DNA of 64,000 nt from Kofleriaceae bacterium (GCA_965215005.1 CBDCCZ010000004.1:32001-96000); one strand, 5' to 3'. Counted from the first letter of the stretch, positions 14,341 through 64,000 are shown. The notes: generated by a model from the letters alone, not told the origin. Program-made: numbers and translations.

Positions 14341-14540
14341 GGTCGTGCTCCTCGAAGTTGGCGTCATCCTAGTACGCGTAAACCGCTGTGCTCCTTCCGC
14401 GGCCAACAGTGGGGCCGAGATCCCCAGAGCAACGGCCTGGGTAGCCGCCGAATTGCTCGCGATCACAGGATGTTGGCTCGCTTTGACGCGGTGGTAAGCC
14501 GGGGCCCGAGGTTCCGGCCCTAACGCAGTTGATCCCGTAA

Positions 14541-27084: not shown

Positions 27085-27920
27085 CCGCGTCGGCAAACCC
27101 CCAGACGCGTTCCAGCGCGCTGGGACGGCTGCTTCGGCGTCTCACGGTGGAGCAGTGGCGCGCCATCGACTCGGAGTGCGAAGCTGCCCGCAGCCGCGAG
27201 CTCGGCCAGCAGTTCGACTGGCGACCGCTGGTGGTGTTGGTGGTAGCCGCGATTTCGCTGAGCCTGCAGGAGTACTTTGGCCACCGCGGCTACTTTCAGG
27301 AGTTATTTCCACCTGCCGCCAACGATGACTGGTACCAGCTCAAGGGCTTCGTCTGGTGGTCGGGGTGGCGCTTCTTTGGCTACGTGGTGCTGCCGGTGGC
27401 GGCGATTTGGATCATGCCGGGTGAGCGTGTTCGCGACTACTTCCTCGGCTTCCGCGGCTTCCTTCGCCATCTAGGCCTCTACGGGGTGCTCTTCATCCTG
27501 GTGTTGCCCATGGTGGTCATTGCAGCTCGAACCGAGTCGTTCTTTCTCACCTATCCGTTTTACAAGTGGGCGAATCGCTCGGCTCTGGATTTCTGGCTTT
27601 GGCAGGCGCTGTACGGCTTGCAGTTCCTCTCGCTCGAGTTCTTCTTTCGCGGCTTCTTGCTCTATGGACTGCGGTACAGCATGGGCTCTAAGGCCATCTT
27701 CGTGATGATCGTGCCCTACTGCATGATTCACTTCGGAAAGCCGCTGCCTGAGACCTTGGGTGCCATCGGCGCCGGGCTCATCCTCGGCACCATCGCCATG
27801 CGCACCAAATCGATCTGGGGCGGCGTGCTCATCCATTGCGCAGTGGCGTTGACCATGGACGCGCTGGCGGTGGGACATTGCCCGCAGCCGCAGGCCAACC
27901 TGCCGTGTCGCAGTCACTGA
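27081..27920 (+). CDS. CPBP family intramembrane glutamic endopeptidase
   Basis: [17 protein letters not shown] and GVLIH motifs; multi-TM. Confidence 0.88.
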
Positions 27921-37047: not shown

Positions 37048-37536
37048 TCAGGCTGCGAAGGCTTTTTCGAGCTCTTTCTCGACCTTATCCTCGGACCACT
37101 TACGAGCGACCGCCAGCTCTTTGACAATGAGGTTCTTCGCGGTATCGAGCATCCGCCGCTCGCCAAACGACAGCGTCTTGGTGCTCTTGAGGCGATACAG
37201 ATCGCGAAACACCTCAGCGACCTCGAACAGCGAGCCGGTCTTGATCTTTTCCATGAATCCGCGATAGCGGCGATTCCACGTTTGCTTGTCGATGTGGATG
37301 TCCTGCTCGCGCAGGATATCGAACACTTCTTCGACCTCGTCGGTGGTCGCGACGGAGCGGAGCCCAACTTGGTCGGCCTTGTCCTTCGGGACCAGGATCT
37401 GCATCTCGGTGTCGATCACCTTGAGCACGTAAAACGAGCAGATGGTTGCGTTGATTTCCTTTTGTTCGATCCCCACGACCTCCGCTACGCCCTGCGCGGG
37501 ATAGACCGCTTTGTCGCCGATCCTGAACTCGACCAT
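37048..37536 (-). CDS. cdnL: CarD family RNA polymerase-binding regulator (CdnL-like)
   Basis: FRIGDKAVYPAQGV, TWNRRYR, LSFGERRML; no C-terminal AT-hook domain; start ATG 37536. Confidence 0.9.
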   Translation of the reverse strand: MVEFRIGDKAVYPAQGVAEVVGIEQKEINATICSFYVLKVIDTEMQILVPKDKADQVGLRSVATTDEVEEVFDILREQDIHIDKQTWNRRYRGFMEKIKTGSLFEVAEVFRDLYRLKSTKTLSFGERRMLDTAKNLIVKELAVARKWSEDKVEKELEKAFAA

Positions 37537-38035
37537 GAACCTGTACCTCCGTCTGAACTTGGGCGTAAGCGGCAAGCAAATCACATACCAGCTGGCACTC
37601 TGCTGCCCAAGAAGCTTTGATTCCGGTGGGTTATGCGCATGATGGGGATTCAGACCCCGGCGCGACTTGCGCCAAGCTGTCACAGCGCTGCTTCACGATT
37701 CTGCGGCAAAATCACAAAAACCGCAACGCAGGCGGAAACATACGCGGTCATCGCAGCCAGTTGCATAGCGACTCGCGAGGTGGGGCGATTTGACTAGCCA
37801 CTTGCCTGCACTGCCTACTTCCTATGCCTTGGGAGTAAGCCAGCAAACCTCAATGAATAGTGGAGGAAAGTCCACTGTAATGCCGCGAAGTAAAATAGCC
37901 AGAAATCTGGCCCCACCGGTCGGTCGCCAGCCAGCAGACGTGGGAAGTTGGAAGTGAATGTGAGCGGCGGCGGATTGCTTTCATCATTGGCCAAGACGGT
38001 GTGGACGCGAAGGATCGGCTGTTACCATCCCTTCC

Positions 38036-46151: not shown

Positions 46152-49100
46152 CTAGCTTTCCTCGCCGGTCGAGGTCGCGGAGTGCAGCTCGTGCGTCGTT
46201 ACATTTTCATCGAGCAGGGTGAGGGCGATAGCCAGTGCTTTCTTCGCCTTGGTGACGGTGTCGTCGTCGCGCCGGATCTTTTGGTAGGCCTTTAGGACCT
46301 GCTCCTGATAGGCCGCGTTCTGCGCTTTGAGCTCTTCGAGATCGGCTTCGAGACGCTCTAGCGTTGCCTCGTGCGCTTCGATCGTTTCGCGGTGGGCATC
46401 GAGCTCGGCGTCGCGGGCGGCGATCAGCTCATTGGCGGTGCTCAGCTCCGCTTGACGCTCTACCAAGCTCGCGTTAGTGGCGTCGAGGGACGTGGCGAGC
46501 CGGTCTCGCTGCGCCGTGAGTGCCTCGGCGGCCTGGCGATGTTGCGCCCGCATCTCGTCGGTCTCGGTCTGGAAATCCAGCCTCATGACGCGCTCGGCTT
46601 CGCCGCGATCCTGCTGTGCTCGCTCGAGCGCTTCCCGCTTATCGTTTTCGGCGTCGGCGAGTGCTTTGGCCTTGTCGTCTTCGGCGGCGGCGAGCTCGCG
46701 TTCGCGGCGCTGTTCGGCGTCGGCGAGTGCTTTGGCCTTATCGTCTTCGGCTGCGGCGAGCTCGCGTTCGCGGCGCTGTTCGGCGTCGGCTAGTGCTTTG
46801 GCCTTGTCGTCTTCGGCGGCGGCGAGCTCGCGTTCGCGGCGCTGTTCGGCGTCTGCGAGTGCTTTGGTCTTATCGTCTTCGGCGGCGGCGAGCTCGCGTT
46901 CGCGGCGCTCTTCGGCGTCGGCGAGCTCACGCTGGCCGTGTTGAATTGCCTCGCGATGCTCGCGGTCGAGCCGCGCCAGCTGGCCCGCGTGCTGATCGGT
47001 GAGCGTCTGCAGCGCCTGCCGATGGCCCGCGGTCAACGTGGCCGTCTCCTCCTCGTGTTGGGCTGCGAGGCTCTCCAGTGCCTCCTGGTGAGCGTCCTGC
47101 TCGGCTGCGCGCGCTCGTGTGGCCTCAGCGAGCGCTTGCTCGCTGCGTTCCTTTAGCGATGCCAGCTGAGCGCGAAGTGCCTCTGCGACCTGGGTGGACT
47201 CCGAGCGCAGCGTGGCGAGTGCTCGTTCGCTTTCTTCGCGCAGCGCGGCACGAGCGGTTTCGTGCTGCTCAGCTTGCGCCGCAGCGTCGCGCGCGTGCTC
47301 TTGCGCAAGCGCCGCGGCAGCTTGCTCACTTTGACTCGCCAGGGCCTCGAGCTGCTGCTCGTGCTCGCTCCGCAGAGCGGCAAGAGCGGTCTGGTTTTGC
47401 CTGCGCAACGACTCGAGCTCGCCCGTATGCTGCTCTTGCAGCGCCGCCTGAGCCTCCGCGCTCGCTCGTTGTTGGTCTTCGAGCGTGCGCGTGTGCGACT
47501 CGTTCAAGCCGTGTAGCGCGCGCTTTTGGGCGGCGTCGGCGTCGGCAAGCGCTTGTTCTTTGGCCTCGGCGGCATCGAGCAGCGCCTGTTCGTGCTCACG
47601 CCGCTGTGCCGCCAGCGCCGAAATCTTGGCCTCTTCGGCCTCGACGAGCGCCTTATCGCGGGTTTCTTCGGCGGCGGCGAGCTCACGACGATGCGCCTCT
47701 TCGACTCGCGCCAGCGCATCGCGATGGCGCTCCTCGACCTCGGCTCGATCCCTCTCTGCCCGCTCCTCCGCTGCGTCGGCCGCGCGCTGGGCCTCGGCTG
47801 CGTGCGCTTGCAGCGCCGCTTCCCGCTGCTCGGTTAGCTCATCGCGCAATGCCGCCAGCTCTTCGAGCTGAACGCGCTCGCGCTCATGACTGGCGTGCTC
47901 ATGCTCTCGCTGCACCGCCTCGAGCGCCGCCGCATTTTTGCTAGCCAGCTCCTCGAGCGCTGAGTCATGCGCTCGCTCGAGCTGCTCGCGCTCTTTTGCG
48001 GCACGAGCGGCGCGCTCGTCCGCGAGTTGCTCGCGCTCCTGCAGCGTCGCCTCGAGCTGAGAACTGGCCTTGCGCGCCCGCTCAAGCTCGCTTTCGAGCG
48101 CTACGCCGCGTCCGCGCAGCTCGTCGAGCTCGCTTTCGAGGTTGGCACTTCGTTCCCGCAGCTCGCCGAGCTCGTCTTCGACCGCGCGCCGCTGGGCCTG
48201 CGACTCGCGCGTTGCCCGCTCGGCTCGATCGACGGTCTCACTGTCTTCTAAAAGCCGCTGCTCGAGCTCGAGGTTCTTGGCATCGAGCGCGGTCTTGGAA
48301 TGCTCTAGCTGCCGCAGGCGGTCGTTGATCTCGAGGATCTGGCGGTCCTTGCCACCCACCTCGTCGCGCAGCTCGAGGATCTCGCGTTCTTTCTTGTTGA
48401 TGAGCTCGCGGAGGTTTAGGAACTCACGCTCGCGCGAGAACGACTTGCCGACTTCGGGTTGCTCGCGCGACTTCTCGAGCTCGGCCTCCAGGCGCTGATT
48501 CTCGCGCTCGAGCGCATGCAGCTTCTGCAAGGTGCGGCGGTCGTGAACCCCCGACTGCTCTTCGTCGGCAGCGCGGGCGACCTCTTCGAGACCGAGATCG
48601 AGCTCGGCAGGCTTGTTGACCGGCGCCTCGACGCGCGCGTTATCCGCGGCCTCGGCGGCGGCGGCGGCGGCCATCAGCGCTGCGGCATTTATGGTGGCCA
48701 CCTGCGTGGGTTTTTCTTCTGGCATCTCGAAGCCGACCGGCTCCGACGCGGTCGCGAAGTCGGCTTCGGAATCGTCCGCGGCCGCTTCAGCAAACGGCGA
48801 TTCGGGCTCGGACTCGGCGCCGACGTCTTCGAAGCCCAGCTCTGCCGCCGATAGCTCTGCCGCCGACAGCTCTGCCGCGCTTTCTTCTTCTTCGGCGGCG
48901 GGATCGTCGGCGAGTGCGGAGAAATCCTCGGTGAGCATCGCAAAGGCGGCGTCGGTTTCAGCGTCGATGCCCTCGTCGATCAACAGGTTCGGAGGCGCGA
49001 CGGTGGTCTTTTCCACCGCTTCTTCGGCAAAGTCACTCAGATCAGCGCCAAGCTCGAGATCATCGGCGTCGATTTCGTCGACCAAGACGTCGTTCTGCAG

Positions 49101-49547
49101 CTCGACATCTCCGAGCTCCATCTCTTCGACATCTACCGGAATCTCGAGATCGTCCACCTCACCGATCTCACCGAGGCCGATCAAGTTATCGAGCTTGCCG
49201 ATGAGCACGTGCGGATTCAGGTCGCGCTTGTCGAAGTATTCGTCGGCGTGGGCGCGTAGCTTCCGATGGCTCTGAAACCCCGAAGACGGCACCGACTGCG
49301 TGGTCAGGACAATAGGAATGTCAGCGGCAATCCCCTTCTTCGCCTTGTTGCACAGCGAATAGCCGAGCTTTTCCGGCTCCTCGACAGCGATGAAGATGAC
49401 CTCCGGTTGAATGTCGTGCACCTGATCGAGCGCCTCTGCGCTTTCTTCGACTGCATAGATCTCGAAGCCGTAAGGAGCGAGTTGCTGGTCGAGGAGGCGA
49501 TGAAATTCTGGATCAGAGTCGATGAGGAGAAGGCGGCGTGAGCCCAT
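46152..49547 (-). CDS. frzS: FrzS-like pseudo-receiver plus long coiled-coil protein
   Basis: Receiver with Ala at the phospho-Asp position (IFIAVE) and [14 protein letters not shown], matching my recollection of FrzS; acidic linker; >700 aa coiled coil. Confidence 0.75.
46647..46925 (-). repeat. Intragenic 66-bp tandem repeat (about 4.2 copies; 22-aa unit)
   Basis: Units start at 46647, 46713, 46779, 46845, partial 46911; encode [22 protein letters not shown]. Confidence 0.92.
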
Positions 49548-49677
49548 GAGCCGGCGGTCCTTTCGCTGCGCCAAAAGTCTATCGCGCGCGTCGACAGGGC
49601 CGCAACGACACGAATGTGGGTAGCCGCCGTGCAGGCGCTGCGATGTAGGGCTTCAGCGTTGCGCAGAGGGCAGCAGC

Positions 49678-52640: not shown

Positions 52641-53831
52641 TCAGCTGCGATAGTCAGCGTTGATGGTGACGTAGTCGTGAGACAGGTCGCACGCGAGATA
52701 CTGACCGCTACCAGGGCCCATGTTCAAATCGATGATGATTGGATAGCGCGGCGCGGTCATCACTTTGGCCGCGCTGGCTTCAATATCCGCTGCGACGCGG
52801 GCGCCGCCGGCAACGACTTGAACTTCGCCGATGAAGAGGTCGATCGATGCCGGCCGCACGGCAACGCCGGCGTTGCCAGCGGCGCACAAGATGCGTCCCC
52901 AGTTGGGATCGGCACCGGCGATGGCGGTCTTGACCAGCGGCGAGTTGGCGATGCGGCGCGCGATGGTCTGCGCCGCGCGGTCGCTGGCAGCGCCGCGTAC
53001 GCGGATGGTGACGACGTGGTGCACGCCCTCGCCCTGGCTCATGAGCGCCTGAGCGAGCTCATCGAGAAGCTCGGTGAGGGCGGTGGCAAACGCAGTAAGA
53101 GCCTTGCCGCGCAGCGCGCGGCGATTACCAACGCCGCTGGCGAGCACCACGATCATATCGTTGGTGGAGGTGTCGCCGTCGACGGTGATGGCGTTGAAGG
53201 TCGTGGCGCACGCCGAGCCGAGCGTCTGTTGCAGCGCAGCGCTCGAGACGCGTGCGTCGGTGGTGACGAAGGTGAGCGTGGTGGCCATGTTGGGCGCGAT
53301 CATGCCGGCGCCCTTGGTGCAGCCGATGATCGTGATGGTCTCGCCGTTGATGGTGAGCGAGCGCTGCGCGGTCTTGGCGGCTCGATCGGTCGTGAGAATG
53401 GCCTCTGCAAAGCCGCTGAAGCCATCGCCATGCAGTTGCTTGCAAGCTTGTTCGATGCCGGCGGCGACCGCGTCGATGGGAAGCGGCACGCCGATGACGC
53501 CCGTGGATGCCACGATGACCTCATCAGCCGTGCTGTCGATGAGAGCCGCGGTTTGCCGCGCCATGGTTCGCGCATCGCGCAGCCCGCTGGCGCCGGTGCA
53601 GGCGTTGGCGTTGCCGCTGTTGACGACCACGGCCCGAACGACGCCCGCGGTGCGGGCAAGCGCGGCGCGGGAGACTCGCACCGGTGCTGCCGCCAAGCGA
53701 TTCTTGGTGAACACCGCCGCCGCGGTCGCAGCGCCGTCGCAGGCGATGATGCCTAGATCGGGGAGGCCGCTACTCTTGATGCCGCAAGCGAGGGCGGCGA
53801 AGCGGAAGCCCGCACAGCAAAGCGAAGCCAT
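52641..53831 (-). CDS. argJ: Bifunctional ornithine acetyltransferase / N-acetylglutamate synthase
   Basis: NSGNANACTG, STGVIG, KGAGMIAPNMAT, DGDTSTND, DPNWGRI, NADYRS. Confidence 0.97.
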   Translation of the reverse strand: MASLCCAGFRFAALACGIKSSGLPDLGIIACDGAATAAAVFTKNRLAAAPVRVSRAALARTAGVVRAVVVNSGNANACTGASGLRDARTMARQTAALIDSTADEVIVASTGVIGVPLPIDAVAAGIEQACKQLHGDGFSGFAEAILTTDRAAKTAQRSLTINGETITIIGCTKGAGMIAPNMATTLTFVTTDARVSSAALQQTLGSACATTFNAITVDGDTSTNDMIVVLASGVGNRRALRGKALTAFATALTELLDELAQALMSQGEGVHHVVTIRVRGAASDRAAQTIARRIANSPLVKTAIAGADPNWGRILCAAGNAGVAVRPASIDLFIGEVQVVAGGARVAADIEASAAKVMTAPRYPIIIDLNMGPGSGQYLACDLSHDYVTINADYRS

Positions 53832-53846
53832 GCGTCCACGTATACC

Positions 53847-55061
53847 TCACGAGGCGTCGCGTTGGCGCTGCTTGGCCAGCTGGGGACCTGTGGTCGCGAC
53901 GCGCGCGTAAGCGCCCGACTGCAGGGTCACGCCGGTGACGACGGCGAGCCCGGCTTCGTCGGTGACGCGCAGATGCGTGCGATCGAAAAGCTCGGCGATG
54001 CGCTGCTTGACCAGCGGAATGTTGCAGGTGCCGCCAATGAGGATCACCTCGTCGACCTCGCTTGGTTGCCATCCCGCGTGTTGCAGCTGTGCCGTCGTCT
54101 CGGTTACCGCACGCGCCACCAGCCGACGCCATAGGGGCTCGAGCCACGGGCGATCGACGACCACATCGATGTCCATGCGCGTGCCCCGCTCGACGTACGC
54201 ATCGGGGACGACCAGCTGCGCACTCTCAACGCGCGAGAGCACCCGTTTGATCGACTCGCAGCGCATTCGCAGGCTCGCCCAGCGGATCGCATCGCGGCGC
54301 ATGTCGAACTTGCAGCGGCGAAATACTTGCCCAGCGATGGCGTCGGCGAAGGCGTCGTCGAAGTCATCACCGCCCAAGAACGGATCGCCGCCGGTGGCGA
54401 CCGGGCGGAATACCGTTCCTTCCTGCTCGAGCAGGCTCACGTCGTAAGTGCCGCCGCCAAAGTCGCACACCGCGATGCGGCGATTGGCGGGCTGGGCGTG
54501 CAGTCCAGCGGCGAGCGCGCCGGCGATGGGCTCGGGAACGACTTGAAGAATTTCTACGTGCGCCAAGCGCGCTGCACGTCGCAGTGCGGCGATGTAGCCC
54601 GCATGGCACATCGCCGGAACTCCCAGCACGACAGAACGTACCGCGCAGCCAAAGCGTCGCTCGGCCAGTCCGCGCAGATGCGAGAGGATGGCAGCGGCAA
54701 TCTGCTCAGGGGCAATTTCGCTGCCGTCGATGTCGAGGACCGCGCGACCGCGGGCACCAGCTTTGATGCGATAGCCGACGCCGGCATCGAGACCACGGAC
54801 CTCGGGATCGGTGTTGGAGCGACCGAGCAGCCGCTTGATCGAACCGACGGTCCGCATCGGCTCGGTGGCCATCTTGAGCTGCGCGCTGCGACCAACGATG
54901 GGAGCGCCGCGCTGCGGCACGTGGACGACACTTGGAACGCTGGGATCGCCGTTGTCGAGGACCATCTCGAGGCGCTCACCGAGCATCGTTCCCGCCACCG
55001 AGTAGGTGGTTCCAAGGTCGATGCCCAAGACCACCTCGGTCTTACTCGCTGTTGCGCTCAC
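53847..55061 (-). CDS. Hsp70-family protein, nucleotide-binding domain only
   Basis: GIDLGTTYS, EPIAGAL, DFGGGTYD, LGGDDFD, LIGG; ends at about 400 aa without a substrate-binding domain; start uncertain. Confidence 0.9.
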   Translation of the reverse strand: MSATASKTEVVLGIDLGTTYSVAGTMLGERLEMVLDNGDPSVPSVVHVPQRGAPIVGRSAQLKMATEPMRTVGSIKRLLGRSNTDPEVRGLDAGVGYRIKAGARGRAVLDIDGSEIAPEQIAAAILSHLRGLAERRFGCAVRSVVLGVPAMCHAGYIAALRRAARLAHVEILQVVPEPIAGALAAGLHAQPANRRIAVCDFGGGTYDVSLLEQEGTVFRPVATGGDPFLGGDDFDDAFADAIAGQVFRRCKFDMRRDAIRWASLRMRCESIKRVLSRVESAQLVVPDAYVERGTRMDIDVVVDRPWLEPLWRRLVARAVTETTAQLQHAGWQPSEVDEVILIGGTCNIPLVKQRIAELFDRTHLRVTDEAGLAVVTGVTLQSGAYARVATTGPQLAKQRQRDAS

Positions 55062-55235
55062 GGGTTCCGTCGCTCCACGAACATGCAATCGTCCGCATTG
55101 CGGCTCGATTGAGGAGCGCCGTGGCGAATTTTGTCGGCCGGCGCCAGAATCGCCGACGAATCGGGCTGCAAGACTGCAAAGGCCGCGAAACGACACAGTG
55201 CGCTGTGCGGCACTGCCATTGCACCAAGGAGCGCG

Positions 55236-55745
55236 ATGCGTTGCTCTATGCTCGGAATGGTCGTGCTCGTGCTCAGTGGCAGCAGCGTGCGCGCCGAGAC
55301 CATTTCACCGGCGCTGGTGACGGCGGAGGTGCGCGCAGGTGCGGGCCTGGCGGTCGGCGGAGGTGCTGGGCAGTCGCAATGGCGGCAATCGCCGGTGACC
55401 GTGGGGGCGTTGGCGGATTTCGCGATTCTCACCGAGCCTTGGACGACGCTTTACGGCGGCGCCATCGTAGAAGGAGGCGATCGCGTCACCGCCGGCATCA
55501 CCGGCGGCGTGCGGCTTTGGCCCGGCCACGGGGCGGGAGGACGACTGGCCGCTGGTGGCGTGGCCATATTAGTGCCATTTCAATTGCTTGGCGGTCAGAC
55601 GGCGCTTGGATACTGCATGGGCGGTAGCATGCGCGTCTGCGGCGATATCGAGGCGACGGTGTTCTTTGCTGGCAACGACTTGCCCGATGATCGCGTCGCT
55701 GGGCAGCTGCAGCTGGTTTTAGGAGTGGGCTTCAGTGCGTATTAG
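55236..55745 (+). CDS. Small secreted / outer-membrane beta-barrel-like hypothetical protein
   Basis: Signal peptide, Gly-rich alternating strands, C-terminal LGVGFSAY. Confidence 0.65.
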   Translation: MRCSMLGMVVLVLSGSSVRAETISPALVTAEVRAGAGLAVGGGAGQSQWRQSPVTVGALADFAILTEPWTTLYGGAIVEGGDRVTAGITGGVRLWPGHGAGGRLAAGGVAILVPFQLLGGQTALGYCMGGSMRVCGDIEATVFFAGNDLPDDRVAGQLQLVLGVGFSAY

Positions 55746-56133
55746 CCATCTCGCCGCCGCTATGTTGCTGCTTGTCGGCTGCGAGCTCTCCAACGAGAAC
55801 TGCACGCGCCATAGCGACTGTTCGGCGGAGCTTGTCTGCGGGCGCAGCGGCGCCTGCATCGTCGCGCCGCCCGATGCCGCACCGACAGGCGATGACGGCG
55901 GCCAGTCGCCGAACGCAGATGCAGGCAAGCCGATGGTCGATGCCGGGGCGCGCGATGCGGCCGGCGCGATTCCCAACACCGCGCCAGCCCCTCCTGAGCG
56001 TCCTTGGCGGCAAACGCCGCCCGATGCCGCCATCGATGGCGGTGAGCCCGTGTCCGATGCCGGCACTGTCGATGGCGGTGAATTCATGCCCGATGCCGGC
56101 CCGTCCGGTGCGATAGGAGAGCGATACCGATGA
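55735..56133 (+). CDS. Cys-rich lipoprotein with a DAG-rich low-complexity tail
   Basis: Lipobox LVGC, C....DC....C....C motif, repeated DAG/DGG. Confidence 0.7.
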   Translation: MRISHLAAAMLLLVGCELSNENCTRHSDCSAELVCGRSGACIVAPPDAAPTGDDGGQSPNADAGKPMVDAGARDAAGAIPNTAPAPPERPWRQTPPDAAIDGGEPVSDAGTVDGGEFMPDAGPSGAIGERYR

Positions 56134-57056
56134 TGCATTCAAGCAAGCGCAGCTCGAGTCGCAGTGGCGGCGAGGGTCGCGCTGCGGTCGACGACGTGCT
56201 CGCGCAGGTCGATAACTTGCCGACGCTGCCGCTGGTGGCCATCACCGTGGGCGACATGGTCAATGATCCGGGGGCAACCGCGCGCGACATCTCGGGTGTG
56301 TTGCAGCGCGACCCGAGTTTGAGCGCCAAAGTGCTCCGGCTGGTCAACTCGCCATATTACGCGATTCCGGGCGGAGTTGGCGATGTACAGCGCGCCATCT
56401 CCTTCATCGGCTTCAACACGCTGCACCAACTGGTGCTGAGCGTCTCGGTGCTGAGCGCGTTGCGAACACCAGCAGGCTCGCGCTTTAACGCGCGGGGCCT
56501 TTGGCTGCATTCTCTGGCGGTCGGTGCGTGCGCCGAGGTCATCGCGACCCACATCGGCTACCGCGATCCCGGGGTGTGCTTTACCGCCGGTCTAATGCAC
56601 GACATCGGCAAGATTGCGCTCGCCAAAGCCATGCCCGAGCGCTTCGGCGCCGCGCTCGATGAAGCGAGCAAGAGCGGCACGCAGATGGCGGTTGCCGAGC
56701 GTGGCGCGGGATTGCCGTCGCACGACAAGGTCGGCAGCCGCCTAGCGCGCAAGTGGAAGTTTCCCGCGCCGCTGCTATGCGCGATCGAGCATCATCACGG
56801 CGCGCACCGGCCGCAAGTTCGACGTGAGCTCGCGCCAGCGATCTTGTCAGTAGTCGACATCGTCGCGGTTTCTGACGAGATCAGCCGCTTCTACGCCATT
56901 GGCGATAGTGGCTCGCCAGCGCCGGAAAAGCAGGATATGGCGGCTCTGGAGCGCGTCGGGCTATCGACGATTCAGGCCGAGCGCATCCACTCCGACTTAA
57001 TGCGCAAGCTCGAGGTCTCCAAGACCTTTCTAACGCTCATCGACGGCGACGACTGA
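56130..57056 (+). CDS. HDOD domain protein
   Basis: LPTLP, DPSLSAKVLRLVNSPYY, LWLHS, GLMHDIGK, WKFP...HH. Confidence 0.93.
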   Translation: MMHSSKRSSSRSGGEGRAAVDDVLAQVDNLPTLPLVAITVGDMVNDPGATARDISGVLQRDPSLSAKVLRLVNSPYYAIPGGVGDVQRAISFIGFNTLHQLVLSVSVLSALRTPAGSRFNARGLWLHSLAVGACAEVIATHIGYRDPGVCFTAGLMHDIGKIALAKAMPERFGAALDEASKSGTQMAVAERGAGLPSHDKVGSRLARKWKFPAPLLCAIEHHHGAHRPQVRRELAPAILSVVDIVAVSDEISRFYAIGDSGSPAPEKQDMAALERVGLSTIQAERIHSDLMRKLEVSKTFLTLIDGDD

Positions 57057-57076
57057 GCCATCCTGCCGCGTCAGCT

Positions 57077-58564
57077 CTAGGGCTCGAGGAGCGGTGCGCT
57101 TGCTTGCAGCGCCTTGACGCTCGGCAAGGTCAACGTGAACCGCGAGCCAACCGCGAGCGGCTCGTAGTCGATGCGGCCACCGTGCTCGGCGACGATATGC
57201 GCGGCGATCGCAAGCCCCAGTCCCGAGCCCTCGTGCTGGTCTTTGGTGGTGACGAACGGCTCGAACAGGCGCGGCACCACCTCAGCGGCCACGCCCATAC
57301 CTTCGTCGGAAACCGCAATCCGCACCCAGTCGGCGTCGACCTCGGCACGCACCGTCACCACACCATCGGTGGGCGAAGCATCGACGGCGTTGCGCAACAA
57401 GTTGATGACGACTTGGAGCATGAGCGGCTCGGAGACCATGACCTCGATGTCGGCGATTGGCTCGACGCGCAGCTCGACGCGAGCGCGAGCGTAGGCCTGT
57501 ACCAGGGTGATGCCGCGCTCGATGAGCTCGCCGACGCGACACGATCGGTGATTGGTCTCGCCGTTGCGCACGAAGGACCGCATGGCGGTGAACAGCGACA
57601 CCATGCGCTTGGACATCTCGGTGACGGTCGCGAGCGAGTCGAGCACCTCAGGGTCGCGGTCGGCGGTATCGCGCACGAACGAATCGAGGTCGAACAGCGC
57701 GGCCTGGAGCGCCTGGACGATCGAGGCGAGCTCGTGGACCAGTGCGGCGGTCATGCCGCCGAGCGTGGCGCGCCGGGCCACGTCCGAGAGTCGCGAGCGT
57801 GCTTGCGGATCGCTTGCCGCCTGCCGCGCGAGCTTGGTGGCTTCGTCTTGACTGCTCCAGTGGCGTGCGCGCCGGGCGAGAAACTCGAGGATGTCGCGGG
57901 TGCTGTCGCTGGTGACGTCGGCGATCAGGAAGGCATCGCCATCGGCGACGATGGGCTCCTCGACGCGCCAGCGCCCCGACTCTGGCAACGGATCGGGACC
58001 GCTCGGAGCCTGTCCAGCGAGCATGCGGCGACGGCCACAGACGTCCAGGACGACGCCGCATGACTCGACGCCGCCCAGGTGCGACGCCCGCTGGTGCACG
58101 ACCAACGCGAGCGAGCTCAGGCCTTCGGTGGCGCTGAGCTCATCGTCGACGCCAGCCACAGCGAGCGCATCGCCAACCGAGCTGGTGAGAGCGCGCTTGG
58201 CGTCGCGAAACTCGAACGCGCGGCGCAGCGTGACCTCGAGCTCGTCGTGCCAAGGCTTTCCAACCTTGAACGGAGCGTCCGGTTGCAACGTGGCGCGATG
58301 GGCATCGCTATCGAGATAGCCGGTCAAGAGGATGCGTATGACCTCGGGTGAGGCGTCGCGAGCGGCTTCCAGCACCTCGATTCCGCTCTTGCCGGGCATG
58401 CGCAAGTCGGAGATGACGGCGTCATAGTTGCGGCTGGCAAAGAGCTCCATGGCGGCCTCTCCGGACGCGACGGCTTCAACGTCATAGTTGCCGCAGAGCT
58501 CGTCGAACAGCGAGTCGCGGACGTCGTCGTCGTCGTCGACGATCAGGATTTTGCTTTTCACCAT
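57077..58564 (-). CDS. Hybrid receiver-histidine kinase
   Basis: REC (IVDDD, SDLRMPG), VHELAS H-box, NLLRNAVDA, GSGLGL; start ATG 58564. Confidence 0.9.
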   Translation of the reverse strand: MVKSKILIVDDDDDVRDSLFDELCGNYDVEAVASGEAAMELFASRNYDAVISDLRMPGKSGIEVLEAARDASPEVIRILLTGYLDSDAHRATLQPDAPFKVGKPWHDELEVTLRRAFEFRDAKRALTSSVGDALAVAGVDDELSATEGLSSLALVVHQRASHLGGVESCGVVLDVCGRRRMLAGQAPSGPDPLPESGRWRVEEPIVADGDAFLIADVTSDSTRDILEFLARRARHWSSQDEATKLARQAASDPQARSRLSDVARRATLGGMTAALVHELASIVQALQAALFDLDSFVRDTADRDPEVLDSLATVTEMSKRMVSLFTAMRSFVRNGETNHRSCRVGELIERGITLVQAYARARVELRVEPIADIEVMVSEPLMLQVVINLLRNAVDASPTDGVVTVRAEVDADWVRIAVSDEGMGVAAEVVPRLFEPFVTTKDQHEGSGLGLAIAAHIVAEHGGRIDYEPLAVGSRFTLTLPSVKALQASAPLLEP

Positions 58565-59784
58565 GCCGGCTCCTTGCGATGGATCGTTACGTCGAAGCGT
58601 GCGCCTTCGTCGGTGGGCACGTAGACGACATCGCCGCCCCACTGCCGTGCCAACCGCCGCGCCAGACATAGGCCAAGGCCGGTTCCATCACTCCGGCCCG
58701 ACACGAACGGCTCGAAAAGAGAATCCACCATCGCTGCAGGCACGCCCGGACCGGTGTCGATGATTGACACCACGACGCGATTGTCATCGCCGCTGCGGAG
58801 GGCGAGGCGCACCTTACCGGCGCCGCGGAGGGCGCGAATGGCGTTGTCGACCAGGTTCGACAGCACGTGGTGGAGCGCATCCGGCGGCGCCCACGCGGTC
58901 ACGTCGGTGTCGCCTTCGACGTGGAGCTCGACGCGAGGGGAGCGGCCGTCGAAGAGCGACAAGATGACATCGATCTCATCGGCCAAGCGAACCCGCTGCG
59001 GCTTGTACTCCAGCGTGCCGGTCTTATGCGCGCGGCGAATCGAGGTGACGATCACCTCCATGCGCGAGACCGCGTGCTGGGTGCGGCCAAAAAAACGCTC
59101 GAGGTCGGAGGCGAGCTCGGGATACTTCTCGGGCTCGATGCGCCGTTGAATCTGCCGAATCGCGCTGCACAGCGCCGCCATGGGATTGTTCATGCTGTGG
59201 GCGATGCCCGCGGAGAACTCACCCAAGGCGGCATGATGAGCCGCGCGCGCGAGCTGCGCGCCGACCGCGGAGAGCTCTCGGTTGCGCTCTTCCAACCGAT
59301 CTTGCGTCTCTCGCAGCCGTACGAACGCTTGCTCGAGCTCTTGATGAGCGGTGTAGAGCGCCGCGTGCTTGGCGATGACCTCGCGCTCGAGAATGCGCCG
59401 CTCGGTGGTGTCGCGGGCGATGCAGGCCACCAACGGCGCGGTGGGATGATCGATGTGAGCGACGGTGAGGGCGACGAAGACGGTGTAGCCATCGAGGCGG
59501 CGCAGCGCGACCTCTTCGTGGAGACCCGCGCGGTCGAGGATGCGCGAGGTCCAGTCGTCGTCGCGCGTATCGCGGTTGTCATCGGCGAAGAGCTCGCCCG
59601 CGGGCATACCGACGAGCGAGGCGCGCGAGCGACCGACCAGGTCTTCGAGGCGACTGTTGGCTGCGAGCACCCGCCGGGTATCGCGATGGATGCTAAATAC
59701 CGCTTCGGTTCCGTGCTCGAAGAGGATGCCAAACACCTGGTCTTCGAGCGTGGAATCACCTTCTTGAGTCTCGAAGAGCACCAT
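58558..59784 (-). CDS. PAS-domain sensor histidine kinase
   Basis: PAS-like region, AHSMNNP H-box, NLVDNA, DTGPG, GTGLGL; start ATG 59784. Confidence 0.9.
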   Translation of the reverse strand: MVLFETQEGDSTLEDQVFGILFEHGTEAVFSIHRDTRRVLAANSRLEDLVGRSRASLVGMPAGELFADDNRDTRDDDWTSRILDRAGLHEEVALRRLDGYTVFVALTVAHIDHPTAPLVACIARDTTERRILEREVIAKHAALYTAHQELEQAFVRLRETQDRLEERNRELSAVGAQLARAAHHAALGEFSAGIAHSMNNPMAALCSAIRQIQRRIEPEKYPELASDLERFFGRTQHAVSRMEVIVTSIRRAHKTGTLEYKPQRVRLADEIDVILSLFDGRSPRVELHVEGDTDVTAWAPPDALHHVLSNLVDNAIRALRGAGKVRLALRSGDDNRVVVSIIDTGPGVPAAMVDSLFEPFVSGRSDGTGLGLCLARRLARQWGGDVVYVPTDEGARFDVTIHRKEPAW

Positions 59785-60041
59785 CGCTAGCTCTTGGTTC
59801 GTCCGCTGCGGTGCTGCCTTTAGGCTGGTTCTGCGGGTCGGTGACGACCCACGGGGTGGGTCATTGACCCGGGTCCCCGCCGACCTACCGCGGCGGGGTG
59901 ATGGGAATAATGTGCAATGATATTGATGGTATCGATGGGTCGGCCGAAACTCGTGAAGCTGTAGCGCAGCGGCATGTTTCGCAACCATGCGTAACAGCGG
60001 ATGGTGCGTTGCTGGATCGAATCTTGATTGATGAAGCCGGC

Positions 60042-61457
<1,416 letters not shown>

Positions 61458-61570
61458 TACCGATCTCGCTTGGCTTCGCCGAAGCGGCTCCACGGGGGCC
61501 GCTTTGGCGTTTTCGGCCGTTGCGAGGATATGCTCCATCGCGCTGCCGTCGCGCTTGCAGCTGCAGTGCG

Positions 61571-61619
61571 CGTCGGGCCGCCTGACGCACGGGGCATCGG
61601 ATCGTCAATAACGGCGACG
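61571..61619 (+). promoter_or_regulatory. Two palindromic CGTC-N9-GACG boxes, candidate enhancer sites
   Basis: Boxes at 61571-61587 and 61603-61619, 32 bp apart, upstream of the sigma54 promoter. Confidence 0.55.
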
Positions 61620-61669
61620 AATCGCTTCCGCCGCGGCGACAACGGCGCGGAATCAGGAAGACCTCTGAT

Positions 61670-61685
61670 TGGCCCTGCCCTTGCT
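61670..61685 (+). promoter_or_regulatory. Sigma54 (-24/-12) promoter of the flgB operon
   Basis: TGGCCCT-GCCC-TTGCT with GG-N10-GC spacing, ending 12 nt before the flgB ATG. Confidence 0.8.
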
Positions 61686-61697
61686 GTTAAGGCCGCC

Positions 61698-62045
61698 ATG
61701 CGCGTGTTCGCCAACATCGACAGGATGGAAGGAGCGCTCACCTTCCACCGCGATCGCCACAGCGTCATCGCTGGCAATGTCGCGAACGTGGATACGCCTG
61801 GCTACCGGCCCGTCGACCTCGAGCGCCCCACTGATATGTTCGACGTGGGCTTGGGCGAGCGCGGCTACACCACCGCCTTCGATGACTCATCGATGGCGGT
61901 ATCGGCCGATGGCAATGCCGTGAACCTCGAGCGTGAGCTGGCGAAGATCGATGCCAACCGCGTTCGCTACAGCACCAGTGCCGAGCTGGTAACGCGGCGC
62001 ATGGCGATCCTGCGCTACGCCGCCACCGACGGCGCTGGCGGCTAA
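61698..62045 (+). CDS. flgB: Flagellar basal-body rod protein FlgB
   Basis: RHSVIAGNVANVDTPGY and DGNAVNLERE; start ATG 61698. Confidence 0.92.
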   Translation: MRVFANIDRMEGALTFHRDRHSVIAGNVANVDTPGYRPVDLERPTDMFDVGLGERGYTTAFDDSSMAVSADGNAVNLERELAKIDANRVRYSTSAELVTRRMAILRYAATDGAGG

Positions 62046-62059
62046 AGGAGGAGGAACCG

Positions 62060-62491
62060 ATGGATTTCTTTACTGCCATGGAAGTCTCTGCCTCTGGCTT
62101 GGCCGCGCAGCGCACGCGCATGAACGTGGCCTCGTCAAACCTTGCCAACGTCTCGACGACGCAAACCGCCGAGGGTGGGCCGTACAAGCGTCGCGATGTA
62201 GTGCTGTCGTCGCAGCAAGTACCGTTTAGCGTTGGCGGGTCCGATCCCACCAGCGATGCGGTACGTGCGGTGGCCGTCGACGGCATCGTCGAGGATCAGG
62301 CGCCACCGATGCTCGAGTATGACCCTGGCCATCCCGATGCGGATGCGCAGGGCTACGTCGCCTATCCCAACGTCAATGTCGTCGAGGAGATGGTCGACAT
62401 GATCACCGCCTCGCGCGCCTACGAGGCCGGCGTGACGGCGCTCTCTACCGCCACCTCGATGGCCGAGCGTGCGGTCGGCATCGGCCGCTGA
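62060..62491 (+). CDS. flgC: Flagellar basal-body rod protein FlgC
   Basis: ASGLAAQRTRMNVASSNLAN, YDPGHPDAD..GYV.YPNVNVVEEMVDMI. Confidence 0.97.
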   Translation: MDFFTAMEVSASGLAAQRTRMNVASSNLANVSTTQTAEGGPYKRRDVVLSSQQVPFSVGGSDPTSDAVRAVAVDGIVEDQAPPMLEYDPGHPDADAQGYVAYPNVNVVEEMVDMITASRAYEAGVTALSTATSMAERAVGIGR

Positions 62492-62499
62492 GGTAGCTC

Positions 62500-62823
62500 A
62501 TGACTGACCAGATCGTTCCCATAGGTCCGCGCGCCGCTGGTATCGGCGGCATCGCGGATGCGCGGCCATCGAGCCGCATCGATGGCGCTGCCGAAGGCGG
62601 CATGGACTTTGGCGAAGCCCTCGCCAATGCGATGAAGGGCGCCTCAGGCGCCGAGAACACCGCTGAGGAGATGAGCGCGCGGTTCTCCGATGGCGATCCC
62701 AACGTCGGCATTCACGAGGTGATGATCGCCTCGGAGAAGGCCAGCATCACCATGCGCTACGCGGTGACCCTCAAGAACAAGATGGTCTCCGCGTACCAGG
62801 AGCTGATGAACACCCAGGTGTGA
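62500..62823 (+). CDS. fliE: Flagellar hook-basal body protein FliE
   Basis: IHEVMIASEKA...KNKMVSAYQELMNTQV. Confidence 0.95.
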   Translation: MTDQIVPIGPRAAGIGGIADARPSSRIDGAAEGGMDFGEALANAMKGASGAENTAEEMSARFSDGDPNVGIHEVMIASEKASITMRYAVTLKNKMVSAYQELMNTQV

Positions 62824-62840
62824 AGCAGCGCTGAAGCACG

Positions 62841-64000
62841 ATGAGCGATATCGAAGACAAGCCCAAGAGCGCGCCCGAGCAGCTCAAGAAGCTGTGGGAC
62901 GAGCTGCCGCGCCGCCGCCGCATCATCTTGGTGGCGGCGGTGCTGCTCACGTTTGGCATCGTGGGCTATGTCGCGACGCGCGAGGTCGAGCCGCCGTACG
63001 CTGCGGTGGCCTCAGGGGTTTCGCACGAAGAGGCCGCGCGCATCGTCAAAGAGCTGCAGGCGCTAGGTGTGCCGTATCGGTTGCGAGCTTCGAGCACCAT
63101 CGTCGAGGTGCCCGAGAGTCGGGTCGACGACGTGCGTTTGGCGCTCACCGATGTCGGCGCGCTGCGCGGCCCCGGAACCGGCTTTGAGATCTTCGATCAA
63201 CAGAGCTGGTCGACGTCTTCGCGGGTCGAAGAGATCAACCTGCGGCGGGCGCTGCAAGGCGAGCTCGAGCGCACGATCGGTGGGTTCGCCGGCATCGAGT
63301 CGGCTCGGGTGCACATCGCGCCGGGGCGGCGCTCGGTGTTTCGCGAAGCCGACGAGCCGCCTTCGGCTTCGGTCAACCTAGTGCTGCGGCATGGCGCGAG
63401 CAAAGTAGATGTTCGCGGCATCGTTGCGACCGTGGCACGGGCGGTCGACGGCCTCGATCCCGAGCGCGTGGTCGTCACCGACGAGACCGGTCGCATCTTG
63501 TCCTCGGGAGATCCCGACGACGCCATCACCGATATGCAGACGCGGCTCGAGCAGACGCTGCGCAAGCGCATCAGCGACATGCTAGAGCGCGCCGTTGGGC
63601 CAGAGAACATCGAGGTCGTGGTCACCGCGGAGATCGATCAGTCGCAGGTCGATCAAACGGAGGAGCTGTTCGATCCGCAAGGTGCGGTGATTCGCACCGA
63701 GATTCGCAATCTCGAAGGCGCTACTAACGACGGCACGATTGGCGGCATCGCCGGCGCGCGGGGCAACTTGCCCGGCACCGACAACGCGCCACAAGCGGGA
63801 GCCGCCGGCAGCGATGCGGATCGCCTCAGCGAGCGTCGCGACTTCGAGATCAGCAAGGTCGTTCGCCGAACCGCCGGTCCCAAAGCCAAGATCAAGCGGC
63901 TGCACGTGGCGATTCTCGTCGATCATCGCGTGGTGCCCGCGGTCGAGGACGGCGCCGAGCCAACCACCGAGCCGCGCGGTACGCAAGAGCTGGCGACGCT
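62841..64000 (+). CDS. fliF: Flagellar MS-ring protein FliF (runs off the window end; absent from the ORF track)
   Basis: My translation from ATG 62841: N-terminal TM, GFEIFD, NLRRALQGELERTI, ARVHIA, PSASV, GGIAGARGNLPG. Confidence 0.93.
   Translation, partial: MSDIEDKPKSAPEQLKKLWDELPRRRRIILVAAVLLTFGIVGYVATREVEPPYAAVASGVSHEEAARIVKELQALGVPYRLRASSTIVEVPESRVDDVRLALTDVGALRGPGTGFEIFDQQSWSTSSRVEEINLRRALQGELERTIGGFAGIESARVHIAPGRRSVFREADEPPSASVNLVLRHGASKVDVRGIVATVARAVDGLDPERVVVTDETGRILSSGDPDDAITDMQTRLEQTLRKRISDMLERAVGPENIEVVVTAEIDQSQVDQTEELFDPQGAVIRTEIRNLEGATNDGTIGGIAGARGNLPGTDNAPQAGAAGSDADRLSERRDFEISKVVRRTAGPKAKIKRLHVAILVDHRVVPAVEDGAEPTTEPRGTQELAT

Follow-up and report, generated by a model that had tools for sequence, protein, structure and literature searches.

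The window analysed here, a stretch of 64,000 nt from contig C4 of genome G000, ends in a run of genes (56130 to 64000) that a sequence-only reading had described as a flagellar basal-body operon, flgB-flgC-fliE-fliF, preceded by a dedicated signalling block. Searches with Pfam and NCBIfam models recovered all eight named genes (those for an HDOD protein, a receiver-kinase, a PAS kinase and a sigma54 activator, followed by flgB, flgC, fliE and fliF) intact at the positions listed in Table 1. The layout required some revision: the genes of the block stand, but those for the two kinases are read from the minus strand and diverge from the unit formed by the activator gene and flgB, flgB itself likely begins at 61698, and the block as a whole is just the 5' end of a much longer cluster.

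Table 1. Genes and promoter-like motif at the end of the window, with positions counted from its first nucleotide
Feature	Position	Strand	Evidence
HDOD-domain protein, 308 aa	56130..57056	+	Pfam HDOD 190.4 bits, HD 46.2 bits (HD-type domain within)
Hybrid kinase, receiver (N-terminal) + histidine-kinase ATPase, 530 aa (longest ORF)	57077..58669	-	Pfam Response_reg 58.5 bits (41-142), HATPase_c 87.2 bits (416-517)
PAS histidine kinase, 476 aa	58558..59988	-	Pfam PAS_9, PAS_4, HisKA, HATPase_c
Sigma54-dependent response regulator (REC - AAA+ - HTH_8)	59898..61457	+	Pfam Sigma54_activat 234.5 bits, Response_reg 71.8, AAA_lid_14, HTH_8
Sigma54-promoter-like motif TGGCCC-N5-TTGCT (GG-N10-GC)	61670..61685	+	13 nt upstream of ATG at 61698
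flgB (proximal rod)	61698..62045	+	Pfam Flg_bb_rod 23.4 bits; NCBIfam FlgB models best 62.8 bits, under cut-offs
flgC (proximal rod)	62060..62491	+	Pfam Flg_bbr_C 59.6 bits, Flg_bb_rod 33.2 bits
fliE (rod/MS-ring adaptor)	62500..62823	+	Pfam FliE 84.5 bits
fliF (MS ring), 5' part	62841..64000	+	Pfam YscJ_FliF 163.6 bits, YscJ_FliF_C

No Pfam domain was recognised in either of two candidate ORFs just before the signalling block (between 55131 and 56138). Within the block, the PAS kinase gene is located upstream of the hybrid kinase gene on the same strand and is divergent from the activator gene. The HDOD protein, both kinases and the activator are all free of TM-like hydropathy windows, and the two kinases are predicted to be cytoplasmic. 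The kinase core of the hybrid protein (residues 283-523) is matched by several NCBIfam models, every one under its equivalog cut-off. The activator carries a Walker A motif at residue 222 and GAFTGA at residue 269, and its predicted architecture is that of FlrC, FleR and FlgR. It nevertheless falls outside the curated flagellar families of NCBIfam, scoring 317.9 bits against FlbD (NF050807) and 299.5 bits against FlgR (NF049963) with cut-offs of 750 bits, and its top matches in that collection are the generic AtoC and NtrC models, likewise under cut-off. What links it to the flagellar genes is therefore its position and the conservation of synteny.

This synteny was assessed in relatives whose flgB lies within the compared stretches, which leaves out G020, G031, G015, G027, G081, G164 and G090. 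Homologues of the hybrid kinase (36-54% identity) and of the PAS kinase (41-57%) adjoin flgB in all five same-family loci that hold this gene, and an HDOD homologue stands beside the kinase pair in one of the five (G018, 25% identity, E=6e-13). A homologue of the activator is found directly upstream of flgB in four of seven assessable loci (G001, G017, G092 and G051), including one from the same class and one from the same phylum.

The longest ORF for flgB spans 61470-62045, but homology starts near its residue 84; the in-frame ATG at 61698 is the likely start, and the predicted product of 115 aa aligns to relatives over residues 1-114. FlgB scores 53.3 bits against TIGR01396 (cut-off 59.05), while FlgC is 68-75% identical to its counterparts in same-family genomes. 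The fliF gene, clipped by the end of the window, is complete on the contig (C4:94841-96478, 545 aa). The sigma54-like motif upstream of flgB differs by one mismatch from TGGCAC-N5-TTGCW and lies so near the ATG that almost no leader is left. Four sigma54-like sites occur in the window against a mean of 1.82 by chance, a number reached in 14 of 100 shuffles, and counts of the consensus are not above chance in the window or in stretches L002 and L003. As the site total is unremarkable, what is suggestive about the flgB-proximal motif is limited to its position. A second GG-N10-GC site with one mismatch is present at the start of fliL, and a common motif was found upstream of flagellins 1-3. The E. 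coli-type sigma28 consensus TAAA-N15-GCCGATAA gave seven sites at three mismatches in stretch L003, a number within chance expectation (mean 4.78), and no flagellin gene has such a site upstream of it.

The genes in Table 1 occupy the opening 8 kb of a flagellar cluster that runs contiguous and uninterrupted over ~42 kb (C4:88130-129971). From flgB onwards, a co-directional block (C4:93698-128147) encodes FlgBC, FliEFGHI, a FliJ-sized ORF, a FliK-like protein, FlgDE, FliMNOPQR, FlhBA, FlhF, a MinD/ParA-type FlhG, FliA, FlgFGAHI, a FlgJ-like Rod-binding+M23 protein, FlgM, FlgN, FlgKL, four flagellins, FliD and FliS, with FliL immediately past its end. Flagellar or flagellum-associated families (E<=0.01) account for 17 of the 18 ORFs scanned in C4:94841-113385 and for 16 of 19 in C4:114118-133819. 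The rest of the cluster, which lies beyond the reach of the sequence-only reading, is intact: no stop codon interrupts a flagellar-family match, more than 45 genes are uninterrupted in G000, and the family models are matched from end to end.

All parts of the organelle are accounted for. The export gate is represented by FHIPEP (FlhA, 820.5 bits), Bac_export_2 (331.2), FliP (235.4), Bac_export_3 (91.1) and Bac_export_1 (142.7) in Pfam, and the export ATPase FliI (ATP-synt_ab and T3SS_ATPase_C) is accompanied by FliH (81.7 bits). The MS ring and C ring are complete, with clear matches for FliF, FliG (three domains) and FliN; FliM, with its FliMN_C domain, is divergent (48 bits against a cut-off of 219.6 for TIGR01397), yet the match is full length. 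Rod, hook and L/P rings are likewise complete (FlgB, FlgC, FlgF, FlgG, FliE, FlgD, FlgE, FlgH, FlgI and FlgA; FlgI 423.1 bits, FlgH 167.5 bits), as are filament, junction and cap, with Flagellin_N and Flagellin_C in each of the four flagellins, FlgK_D1, FlgL, FliD_N/C and the chaperone FliS. The stator is encoded outside the cluster, on contig C44, where the only MotB_plug match in the genome, in a MotB_plug+OmpA gene, adjoins a MotA_ExbB gene with a weak MotA_N match. FliA (220.9 bits against 189.6), FlhF (205.5 against 174.15) and FlgM (26.4 against 25) exceed their cut-offs, and RpoN (449.7 bits) is encoded elsewhere in the genome, as are CheW-domain genes, which are grouped in two chemosensory clusters away from the flagellar one. 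The less certain assignments are FliJ, a weak match (E=0.078), and the FliK-like protein, which is under the Pfam cut-off (25.8 against 29.8). In Pfam searches, the long FliO showed neither an AMIN nor a LysM domain and the 140-aa ORF after fliS gave no match. Altogether, a whole flagellum is encoded by G000.

The genome is myxobacterium-like, as had been proposed, and its phylum, judged from marker hits and the nearest RpoB and not from a classifier, is most likely Myxococcota. MYXO-CTERM (TIGR03901), which is not known from outside Myxococcota, gave 15 matches over cut-off in G000, one of them in the window (24403-24498, minus strand). Among the four same-phylum genomes searched, three gave 8, 2 and 2 matches and G164 gave none; 14 controls also gave none. 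The window also contains the FrzS-like and CdnL-like genes named earlier: a 1140-aa protein (46152-49574, minus strand) with an N-terminal receiver whose best PDB match is to FrzS chains (2gkg, E=1.1e-10), and a 211-aa protein (37048-37683, minus strand) with CarD_TRCF_RID and CarD_C domains and a best PDB match to the CarD-family entry 2lwj (197 bits). The nearest named RpoB, 84% identical, is recorded as 'Myxococcales bacterium', and RpoB is 66-72% identical to that of five same-phylum genomes, one of them of the same class. In an RpoB tree whose references include no named classical myxobacterium, G000 groups with same-phylum genomes, apart from named Alphaproteobacteria, Desulfobacterota-type, Nitrospira and Deferrisomatales rows. 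Two Bdellovibrionota rows and a same-phylum pair (G053 and a named MAG) are unresolved beside the main group at a node with support 83, so this tree fails to separate Bdellovibrionota. The EspA equivalog NF052573 had no match in 151 genomes, with 6 of ~50-220 candidates scored per genome, nor in the controls, and so gives no information on whether the phylum contains Myxococcus. Type IV pili are represented in G000 by PilQ and four PilT-family genes over cut-offs. Since a complete flagellum occurs here together with these genes and a FrzS-like protein, the proposal that the lineage swims as well as using surface motility fits the gene content.

The earlier description implied that flagellar genes are rare in such a lineage, which did not hold. 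Of the genomes sampled, 43 of 81 from the same family and 61 of 151 from the same phylum carry the flagellum-specific P-ring gene flgI, and a myxobacterial precedent was reported in 2008 (Thomas et al., 2008; PMC2330069). The presence of flgI is patchy within genera (18 of 34 genomes in g14, 12 of 17 in g6), a pattern that loss could produce, as could some transfer or the incompleteness of MAGs. One could take the 38 same-family genomes in which flgI was not found, together with this patchiness, to mean that the lineage is losing its flagella and that the cluster of G000, intact but cryptic or rarely used, is a relic heading for deletion and not a routine swimming organelle. In two relatives (G005 and G010) flgI is split across two or three frames, and swimming of Anaeromyxobacter dehalogenans 2CP-C is reported as 'not commonly observed' despite its full cluster (PMC2330069). 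Split genes in low-coverage MAGs may, however, be assembly errors, and the genes of G000 are of full length throughout. FlhA, again over its full length, is 62-73% identical to that of order-level relatives, which suggests continued constraint, and a recent tandem duplication, of at least 98% identity, is present among the flagellins. We therefore regard a cryptic relic as unlikely.

The FlhA sequences also bear on where the cluster came from. Identity drops with rank, from the values above within the order and family to 49-54% within the class and 45-51% within the phylum. The FlhA tree recovers the order (SH-aLRT 100) and the class (99) as clades, and its sub-clades agree with those of the RpoB tree. 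The two trees conflict inside the order, where the sister of G000 is G025 in one and G005+G018 in the other, each with a support of 96. As the FlhA phylogeny mirrors both the RpoB phylogeny and the taxonomic ranks, inheritance of the cluster looks vertical, and for the relatives without it the best reading is that one contiguous block was lost repeatedly.

The contrary view would be that the block is foreign to the myxobacterial lineage and derives from a flagellated neighbour (e.g., from Desulfobacterota or Bdellovibrionota), through horizontal transfer or through chimerism in binning or assembly. FlhA is 46-51% identical to proteins of other phyla (Desulfopila, Halobacteriovorax, Deferrisomatales, Bdellovibrionales), no lower than to distant members of its own phylum, and its phylum-level monophyly lacks strong support (85-91), with the long branches G053 and G057 unresolved. 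Against this stand the agreement of the FlhA class and order clades with taxonomy and RpoB, same-family synteny, which holds on contigs as long as 557 kb, and the setting of the block in a 381-kb contig, with 88 kb of sequence on one side and 250 kb on the other and between housekeeping genes (ArgJ, an Hsp70-like gene and SecA). As had been noted earlier, there is no compositional break: GC is 0.61-0.69 across the window, and by tetranucleotide profile the cluster ranks at the 54th and 30th percentiles among 276 genome chunks, which is genome-typical. Nor was a transposase or integrase family found among the ORFs scanned between 50 and 64 kb with Pfam and NCBIfam. An independently assembled Logan contig of 11,772 nt spans 53598-64000 of the window with 0 differences and bridges the upstream boundary of the cluster; the two sequencing runs that contain this stretch represent one sample, possibly the source of the assembly, and no RNA run was listed as containing it. 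Assembly depth is low (~5x) and secA near the cluster is split, and undetected assembly errors are possible. The contig is not an obvious chimera, and we consider a foreign origin of the block very improbable.

The other alternative offered by the sequence-only reading, a reduced flagellum-derived export or secretion apparatus, can be put aside with near certainty: Myxococcota are reported to carry non-flagellar T3SS with FliO homologues (PMC12248157), to which the second, weaker and split FHIPEP matches of relatives probably belong, but the single FHIPEP gene found in G000 belongs to the flagellar cluster itself, and the external and torque-generating parts (FlgE, FlgK, FlgL, four flagellins, FliD, FlgH, FlgI and MotAB), the rods, FliA and FlgM are present and uninterrupted. 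Most probably, the window thus closes with the promoter-proximal part of a flagellar regulon that is complete and was inherited vertically in an uncultured, Myxococcota-like family.

FlrB/FlrC of Vibrio, FleS/FleR of Pseudomonas and FlgS/FlgR of Campylobacter and Helicobacter form, with FlhF/FlhG and FliA/FlgM, the flagellar control hierarchy of polar flagellates. The locus described here resembles these systems in that a REC-AAA+(GAFTGA)-HTH activator adjoins a soluble PAS histidine kinase near rod and MS-ring genes, and RpoN, FlhF, a MinD-type FlhG, FliA and FlgM are all encoded in G000. Unlike those systems, the locus has a pair of kinases, of which the hybrid one itself carries a receiver, and an HDOD protein; the kinase genes are divergent from the activator gene, and the activator scores under the flagellar equivalog cut-offs. 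By analogy, the cytoplasmic PAS kinase, perhaps together with the hybrid kinase, would phosphorylate the receiver of the adjacent activator. The activator and sigma54 would then turn on the flgB-led basal-body/hook operon, FlhF and FlhG would control the place and number of flagella, and export of FlgM through the hook-basal body would allow FliA to transcribe the flagellins. The HDOD protein may be an accessory input. An organism with this gene content would be expected to swim and to use type IV pili.

The closest described counterpart is A. dehalogenans 2CP-C, for which a 55.7-kb flagellar cluster and swimming were reported (Thomas et al., 2008; PMC2330069). As in G000, there is a large single cluster alongside myxobacterial traits and type IV pilus genes, and the authors' argument for vertical inheritance, with loss in fruiting myxobacteria, is the picture that emerges here from the FlhA and RpoB trees and the flgI tallies. 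In contrast, motAB and che genes are embedded in the cluster of 2CP-C but lie outside that of G000, and the 2CP-C cluster was reported without fliJ, flgN, fliT, flgA, flgJ and fliK, whereas FlgA, FlgN, FlgJ-like and FliK-like proteins are present here; G000 also comes from a different, uncultured family. [quoted passage not shown] No study that systematically surveys Myxococcota for flagellar genes appeared in the literature searched, and the accessible parts of four further articles (PMC11821767, PMC10576062, PMC11613949, PMC13055281) held nothing on flagella of this phylum.

The find is thus real but largely ordinary. Relatives often carry the same genes, flagellar clusters of Myxococcota have been in print since 2008, when that of Anaeromyxobacter appeared, and have been mentioned for MAGs, and the regulatory layout follows the familiar sigma54, FlhFG and FliA pattern and is no new kind of system. 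The conserved two-kinase module next to flgB, with its occasional HDOD protein, is the sole, and mildly, distinctive element. What the cluster adds is one well-assembled example, listed part by part, of a complete flagellar regulon from an uncultured Myxococcota-like family, and the flgI tallies show that uncultured relatives commonly, and not just exceptionally, have such a cluster. It is tempting to speculate further, though we offer this only tentatively, that the flagellum dates back to the ancestor of the whole phylum and persists in about two fifths of its species-level genomes, that the 'non-flagellated myxobacteria' of textbooks represent a condition derived within the cultured fruiting clades, and that loss is ongoing as a recurrent single deletion, even within genera. 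The basal-body operon would then be gated by family-conserved cytoplasmic kinases (the PAS kinase, the receiver-kinase and sometimes the HDOD protein) that feed one sigma54 activator, possibly coordinating swimming with surface motility based on FrzS and type IV pili. These observations bear on reconstructions of flagellar loss and on views of motility and predation in environmental myxobacteria.

Pfam and NCBIfam searches of the window end bore out the HDOD gene, the two kinases, the sigma54 activator and FlgB, FlgC, FliE and FliF named in the sequence-only reading. The flagellar genes continue uninterrupted past the window on the same contig (C4, 381,114 bp, with the window at 32001-96000; the genome, G000, comprises 6.21 Mb in 62 contigs, with completeness of 92.8% and contamination of 2.2%), and the block including its regulators covers C4:88130-129971, or ~42 kb. 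Flagellar or flagellum-associated families were matched by 17 of the 18 ORFs scanned in the first stretch and 16/19 in the second, and a SecA gene beyond FliL marks the cluster end. The proposed inventory of the remainder of the cluster found fliG/M/N, flhAB, flgE/K/L and flagellins in place, with adjacent MotA and MotB genes on another contig (C44). CheW-domain genes form two clusters elsewhere in the genome, one of which carries the sole H-kinase_dim match. Since the block, together with MotA/MotB elsewhere, encodes a whole flagellum, the alternative of a reduced flagellum-derived export apparatus is excluded; the earlier interpretation was therefore half right, the full flagellum standing and the remnant not.

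Features in the window (W) and on contig C4, including its stretches L002 and L003
Feature	Position	Strand	Remarks
Protease 1, CPBP/Rce1-like	W 12274-12999	+	intramembrane
Phage_T4_gp19 protein	W 13408-14466	-	352 aa; tail-tube domain, 40.9 bits
Protease 2, CPBP/Rce1-like	W 27081-27920	+	intramembrane
FrzS-like protein	W 46152-49574	-	1140 aa
HDOD gene	W 56130-57056	+	Pfam, NCBIfam
Receiver-kinase	W 57077-58669	-	Pfam, NCBIfam
PAS-HisKA-HATPase kinase	W 58558-59988	-	Pfam, NCBIfam
REC-Sigma54_activat-AAA_lid-HTH_8 activator	W 59898-61457	+	Pfam, NCBIfam
FlgB, FlgC, FliE, FliF 5' part	3' of activator, to window end		Pfam, NCBIfam
FliF, FliG, FliH, FliI	C4, 3' of the start of fliF in the window		FliF complete, 545 aa
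FliJ-sized ORF			145 aa; FliJ at E=0.078 only
FliK-like protein			613 aa; 25.8 bits, below cut-off
FlgD, FlgE, FliM, FliN			FliM divergent
FliO	L002:11103-12521 (C4:105103-106521)		up to 472 aa
FliP, FliQ, FliR, FlhB, FlhA
FlhF			over equivalog cut-off
FlhG			MinD/ParA-type
FliA			over cut-off
FlgF, FlgG, FlgA, FlgH, FlgI
FlgJ-like protein			Rod-binding+Peptidase_M23
FlgM, FlgN, FlgK, FlgL
Flagellins (n=4), FliD, FliS, 140-aa ORF			no Pfam match for the ORF
Flagellins 1+2	L003:7992-10127 (C4:121992-124127)		tandem duplication
Motif regions upstream of flagellins 1-3	L003:7975-8097, 9138-9260, 10289-10411		CTT(A/C)AAGG motif
GNAT gene, then FliL	after 140-aa ORF	opposite
secA, two overlapping ORFs	L003:16123-19276 (C4:130123-133276)	-	710 aa (DEAD, PP-bind, P-loop); 361 aa (SecA_SW, SEC-C)
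RpoN gene	C4:180991-182439

The longest flgB ORF shows homology from ~residue 84 onward, and an in-frame ATG at 61698 yields a FlgB of normal size (115 aa) that aligns end to end with its relatives. FliO is unusually long: a likely signal peptide (MKALSLL...) and an N-terminal extension of ~200 aa precede a core spanning only residues ~240-305, which is followed by an Ala/Pro-rich tail of ~165 aa. Pfam detected no AMIN or LysM domain in it; Myxococcota FliO proteins with LysM and AMIN domains are noted in PMC12248157. The duplication of flagellins 1 and 2 covers 1163 bp at ≥98% identity including the upstream region and may be explained by a recent duplication event, by gene conversion or by the assembly itself. 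Upstream of the block, ~930 nt between an Hsp70-like gene and the HDOD gene (55197-56129) hold no confident gene, the candidate overlapping ORFs there (55131-55745, plus; 55719-56138, minus) giving no family match.

The sequence-only reading had seen no obvious compositional break, and GC along the window (0.61-0.69) and tetranucleotide correlation with the genome profile (54th percentile of 276 chunks for one 20-22-kb half of the cluster, 30th for the other) agree. A contig of 11,772 nt from Logan's independent assembly of one of the two runs that contain the stretch (X1 and X2) spans window positions 53598-64000 with zero differences, bridging the Hsp70-like gene, the HDOD gene, both kinases, the activator and fliF. 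It supports the upstream join and speaks against a chimera at that boundary, though the sample is not independent: both runs derive from one sample, possibly the assembly source, at a depth of only ~5x. An X2 contig (depth ~3) has an extra A behind position 59088, inside the PAS kinase gene, which is absent in X1 and is probably a low-depth error. The split of secA, an essential gene, suggests a frameshift that is probably an assembly error due to low coverage.

The activator-flgB unit and the two kinase genes are divergently oriented. GAFTGA (269) and Walker A (222) motifs are present in the activator, which falls below both the FlbD and FlgR equivalog cut-offs and is likened to these proteins in working, not in membership. 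As none of the four signalling proteins has a TM-like hydropathy window, their inputs are predicted to be cytoplasmic. We compared synteny in 20-kb stretches taken at a guessed offset from flhA, with flgB present in 8 of the 12 loci read. Both kinase homologues directly adjoin flgB in all five same-family loci holding flgB, the activator gene immediately precedes flgB in 4/7 loci with the upstream side visible (G001 and G017 in the family, G092 in the class, G051 in the phylum), and an HDOD homologue adjoins the kinases in G018 only. These conserved positions thus argue for an activator-flgBC-fliEFG unit that is old in the phylum and for the kinase pair as a family trait, with the HDOD gene as a loosely attached neighbour.

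The flgB ATG is preceded at a distance of 13 nt by a GG-N10-GC motif (TGGCCC-N5-TTGCT), which leaves almost no leader, and a second such motif stands at the fliL start; counts of this motif are not above chance, and the copy before flgB is a lead only towards a putative sigma54 promoter. Flagellins 1-3 share an upstream motif, CTT(A/C)AAGG-N13-14-CGGGCGAACCA after a T-run. This is a candidate FliA (late) promoter; it is unlike the enteric consensus, for which no site was found upstream of the flagellins. The FlrBC/FleSR/FlgSR systems provide the model for a regulatory order in which a kinase would act on the activator, the activator with sigma54 would drive the genes for the basal body and hook, placement of the flagella would be set by FlhF and FlhG, and FlgM export would free FliA for flagellin transcription.

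RpoB of G000 is 84% identical to a record named 'MAG: Myxococcales bacterium', 72-74% to two 'Deltaproteobacteria bacterium' MAGs, 55-67% to all others returned and 66-72% to five related genomes (four same-phylum, one same-class). MYXO-CTERM matches over cut-off number 15, one inside the window; they are present in 3/4 same-phylum genomes and 0/14 controls. The best solved structure for the receiver of the 1140-aa protein is FrzS, and a 211-aa CarD_TRCF_RID+CarD_C protein matched 2lwj, a CarD-family entry that we take to be M. xanthus CdnL, at 197 bits. The FrzS-like, CdnL-like and MYXO-CTERM genes reported earlier were thus recovered, and Myxococcota is well supported as the probable phylum. 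PilQ (401.8 bits) and four PilT-family genes score over cut-off. Because flagellar genes occur together with these and the FrzS-like protein, the genome is predicted to encode both swimming and pilus-based motility, as in the first of the two alternatives posed earlier. Protease 2 scores 71.6 bits against the 'archaeomyxosortase MrtA' model (cut-off 200), and both proteases are candidate sorting enzymes for MYXO-CTERM proteins. The Phage_T4_gp19 protein may belong to a contractile-injection or T6SS-like system; PMC11937823 reports high expression of a gene of this kind in Myxococcota MAGs.

FHIPEP matches occur in 31/41 relatives, G000 counted, and because this family also detects non-flagellar T3SS we counted flgI (PF02119, the flagellum-specific P-ring) instead, bearing in mind that absence from a MAG is not proven absence. 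Within the family, flgI was found in 43/81 genomes including G000 (31/58 high-quality genomes, 8/17 genera) and is patchy inside genera (18/34 in g14, 12/17 in g6); in an even phylum sample (completeness ≥85%) it occurs in 61/151 genomes and 53/120 genera. The rarity implied earlier does not hold: flagellar genes are common in the lineage and phylum, so the surprise was overstated. Two relatives within the family have flgI broken up over two or three reading frames (G005:C16:91995-93019, G010:C10:181461-182489), and these may be pseudogenes marking ongoing flagellum loss, or MAG errors.

FlhA was compared across 26 phylum genomes picked for having matches (hence no prevalence figure) and five named outsiders. 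Identity to G000 declines with rank from 62-73% within the order and family to 49-54% for the class and 45-51% for the phylum, the outsiders reaching 43-48% on the same aligned segments and 44-51% in a separate comparison. In a quick IQ-TREE analysis (32 rows), the order and class each form one clade (SH-aLRT 100 and 99) and most phylum rows attach at 85-91, with two long rows (G053, G057) lacking a resolved position. The suggested comparison of flagellar and species trees, run as FlhA against RpoB (32 rows), agrees in its pairs and sub-clades but differs within the order, where the sister of G000 is G025 for FlhA and G005+G018 for RpoB (96 each).

The core of this finding is already known in print, since PMC2330069, PMC11937823 and PMC12248157 report flagellar genes or FliO in such bacteria. 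High expression of flagellum and pilus genes in Myxococcota and Bdellovibrionota MAGs is described in the second of these, and the first gives a 55.7-kb flagellar cluster for A. dehalogenans 2CP-C and proposed in 2008 vertical descent with repeated loss for Anaeromyxobacter. Taken together, the results for G000 and its relatives fit the same scheme.
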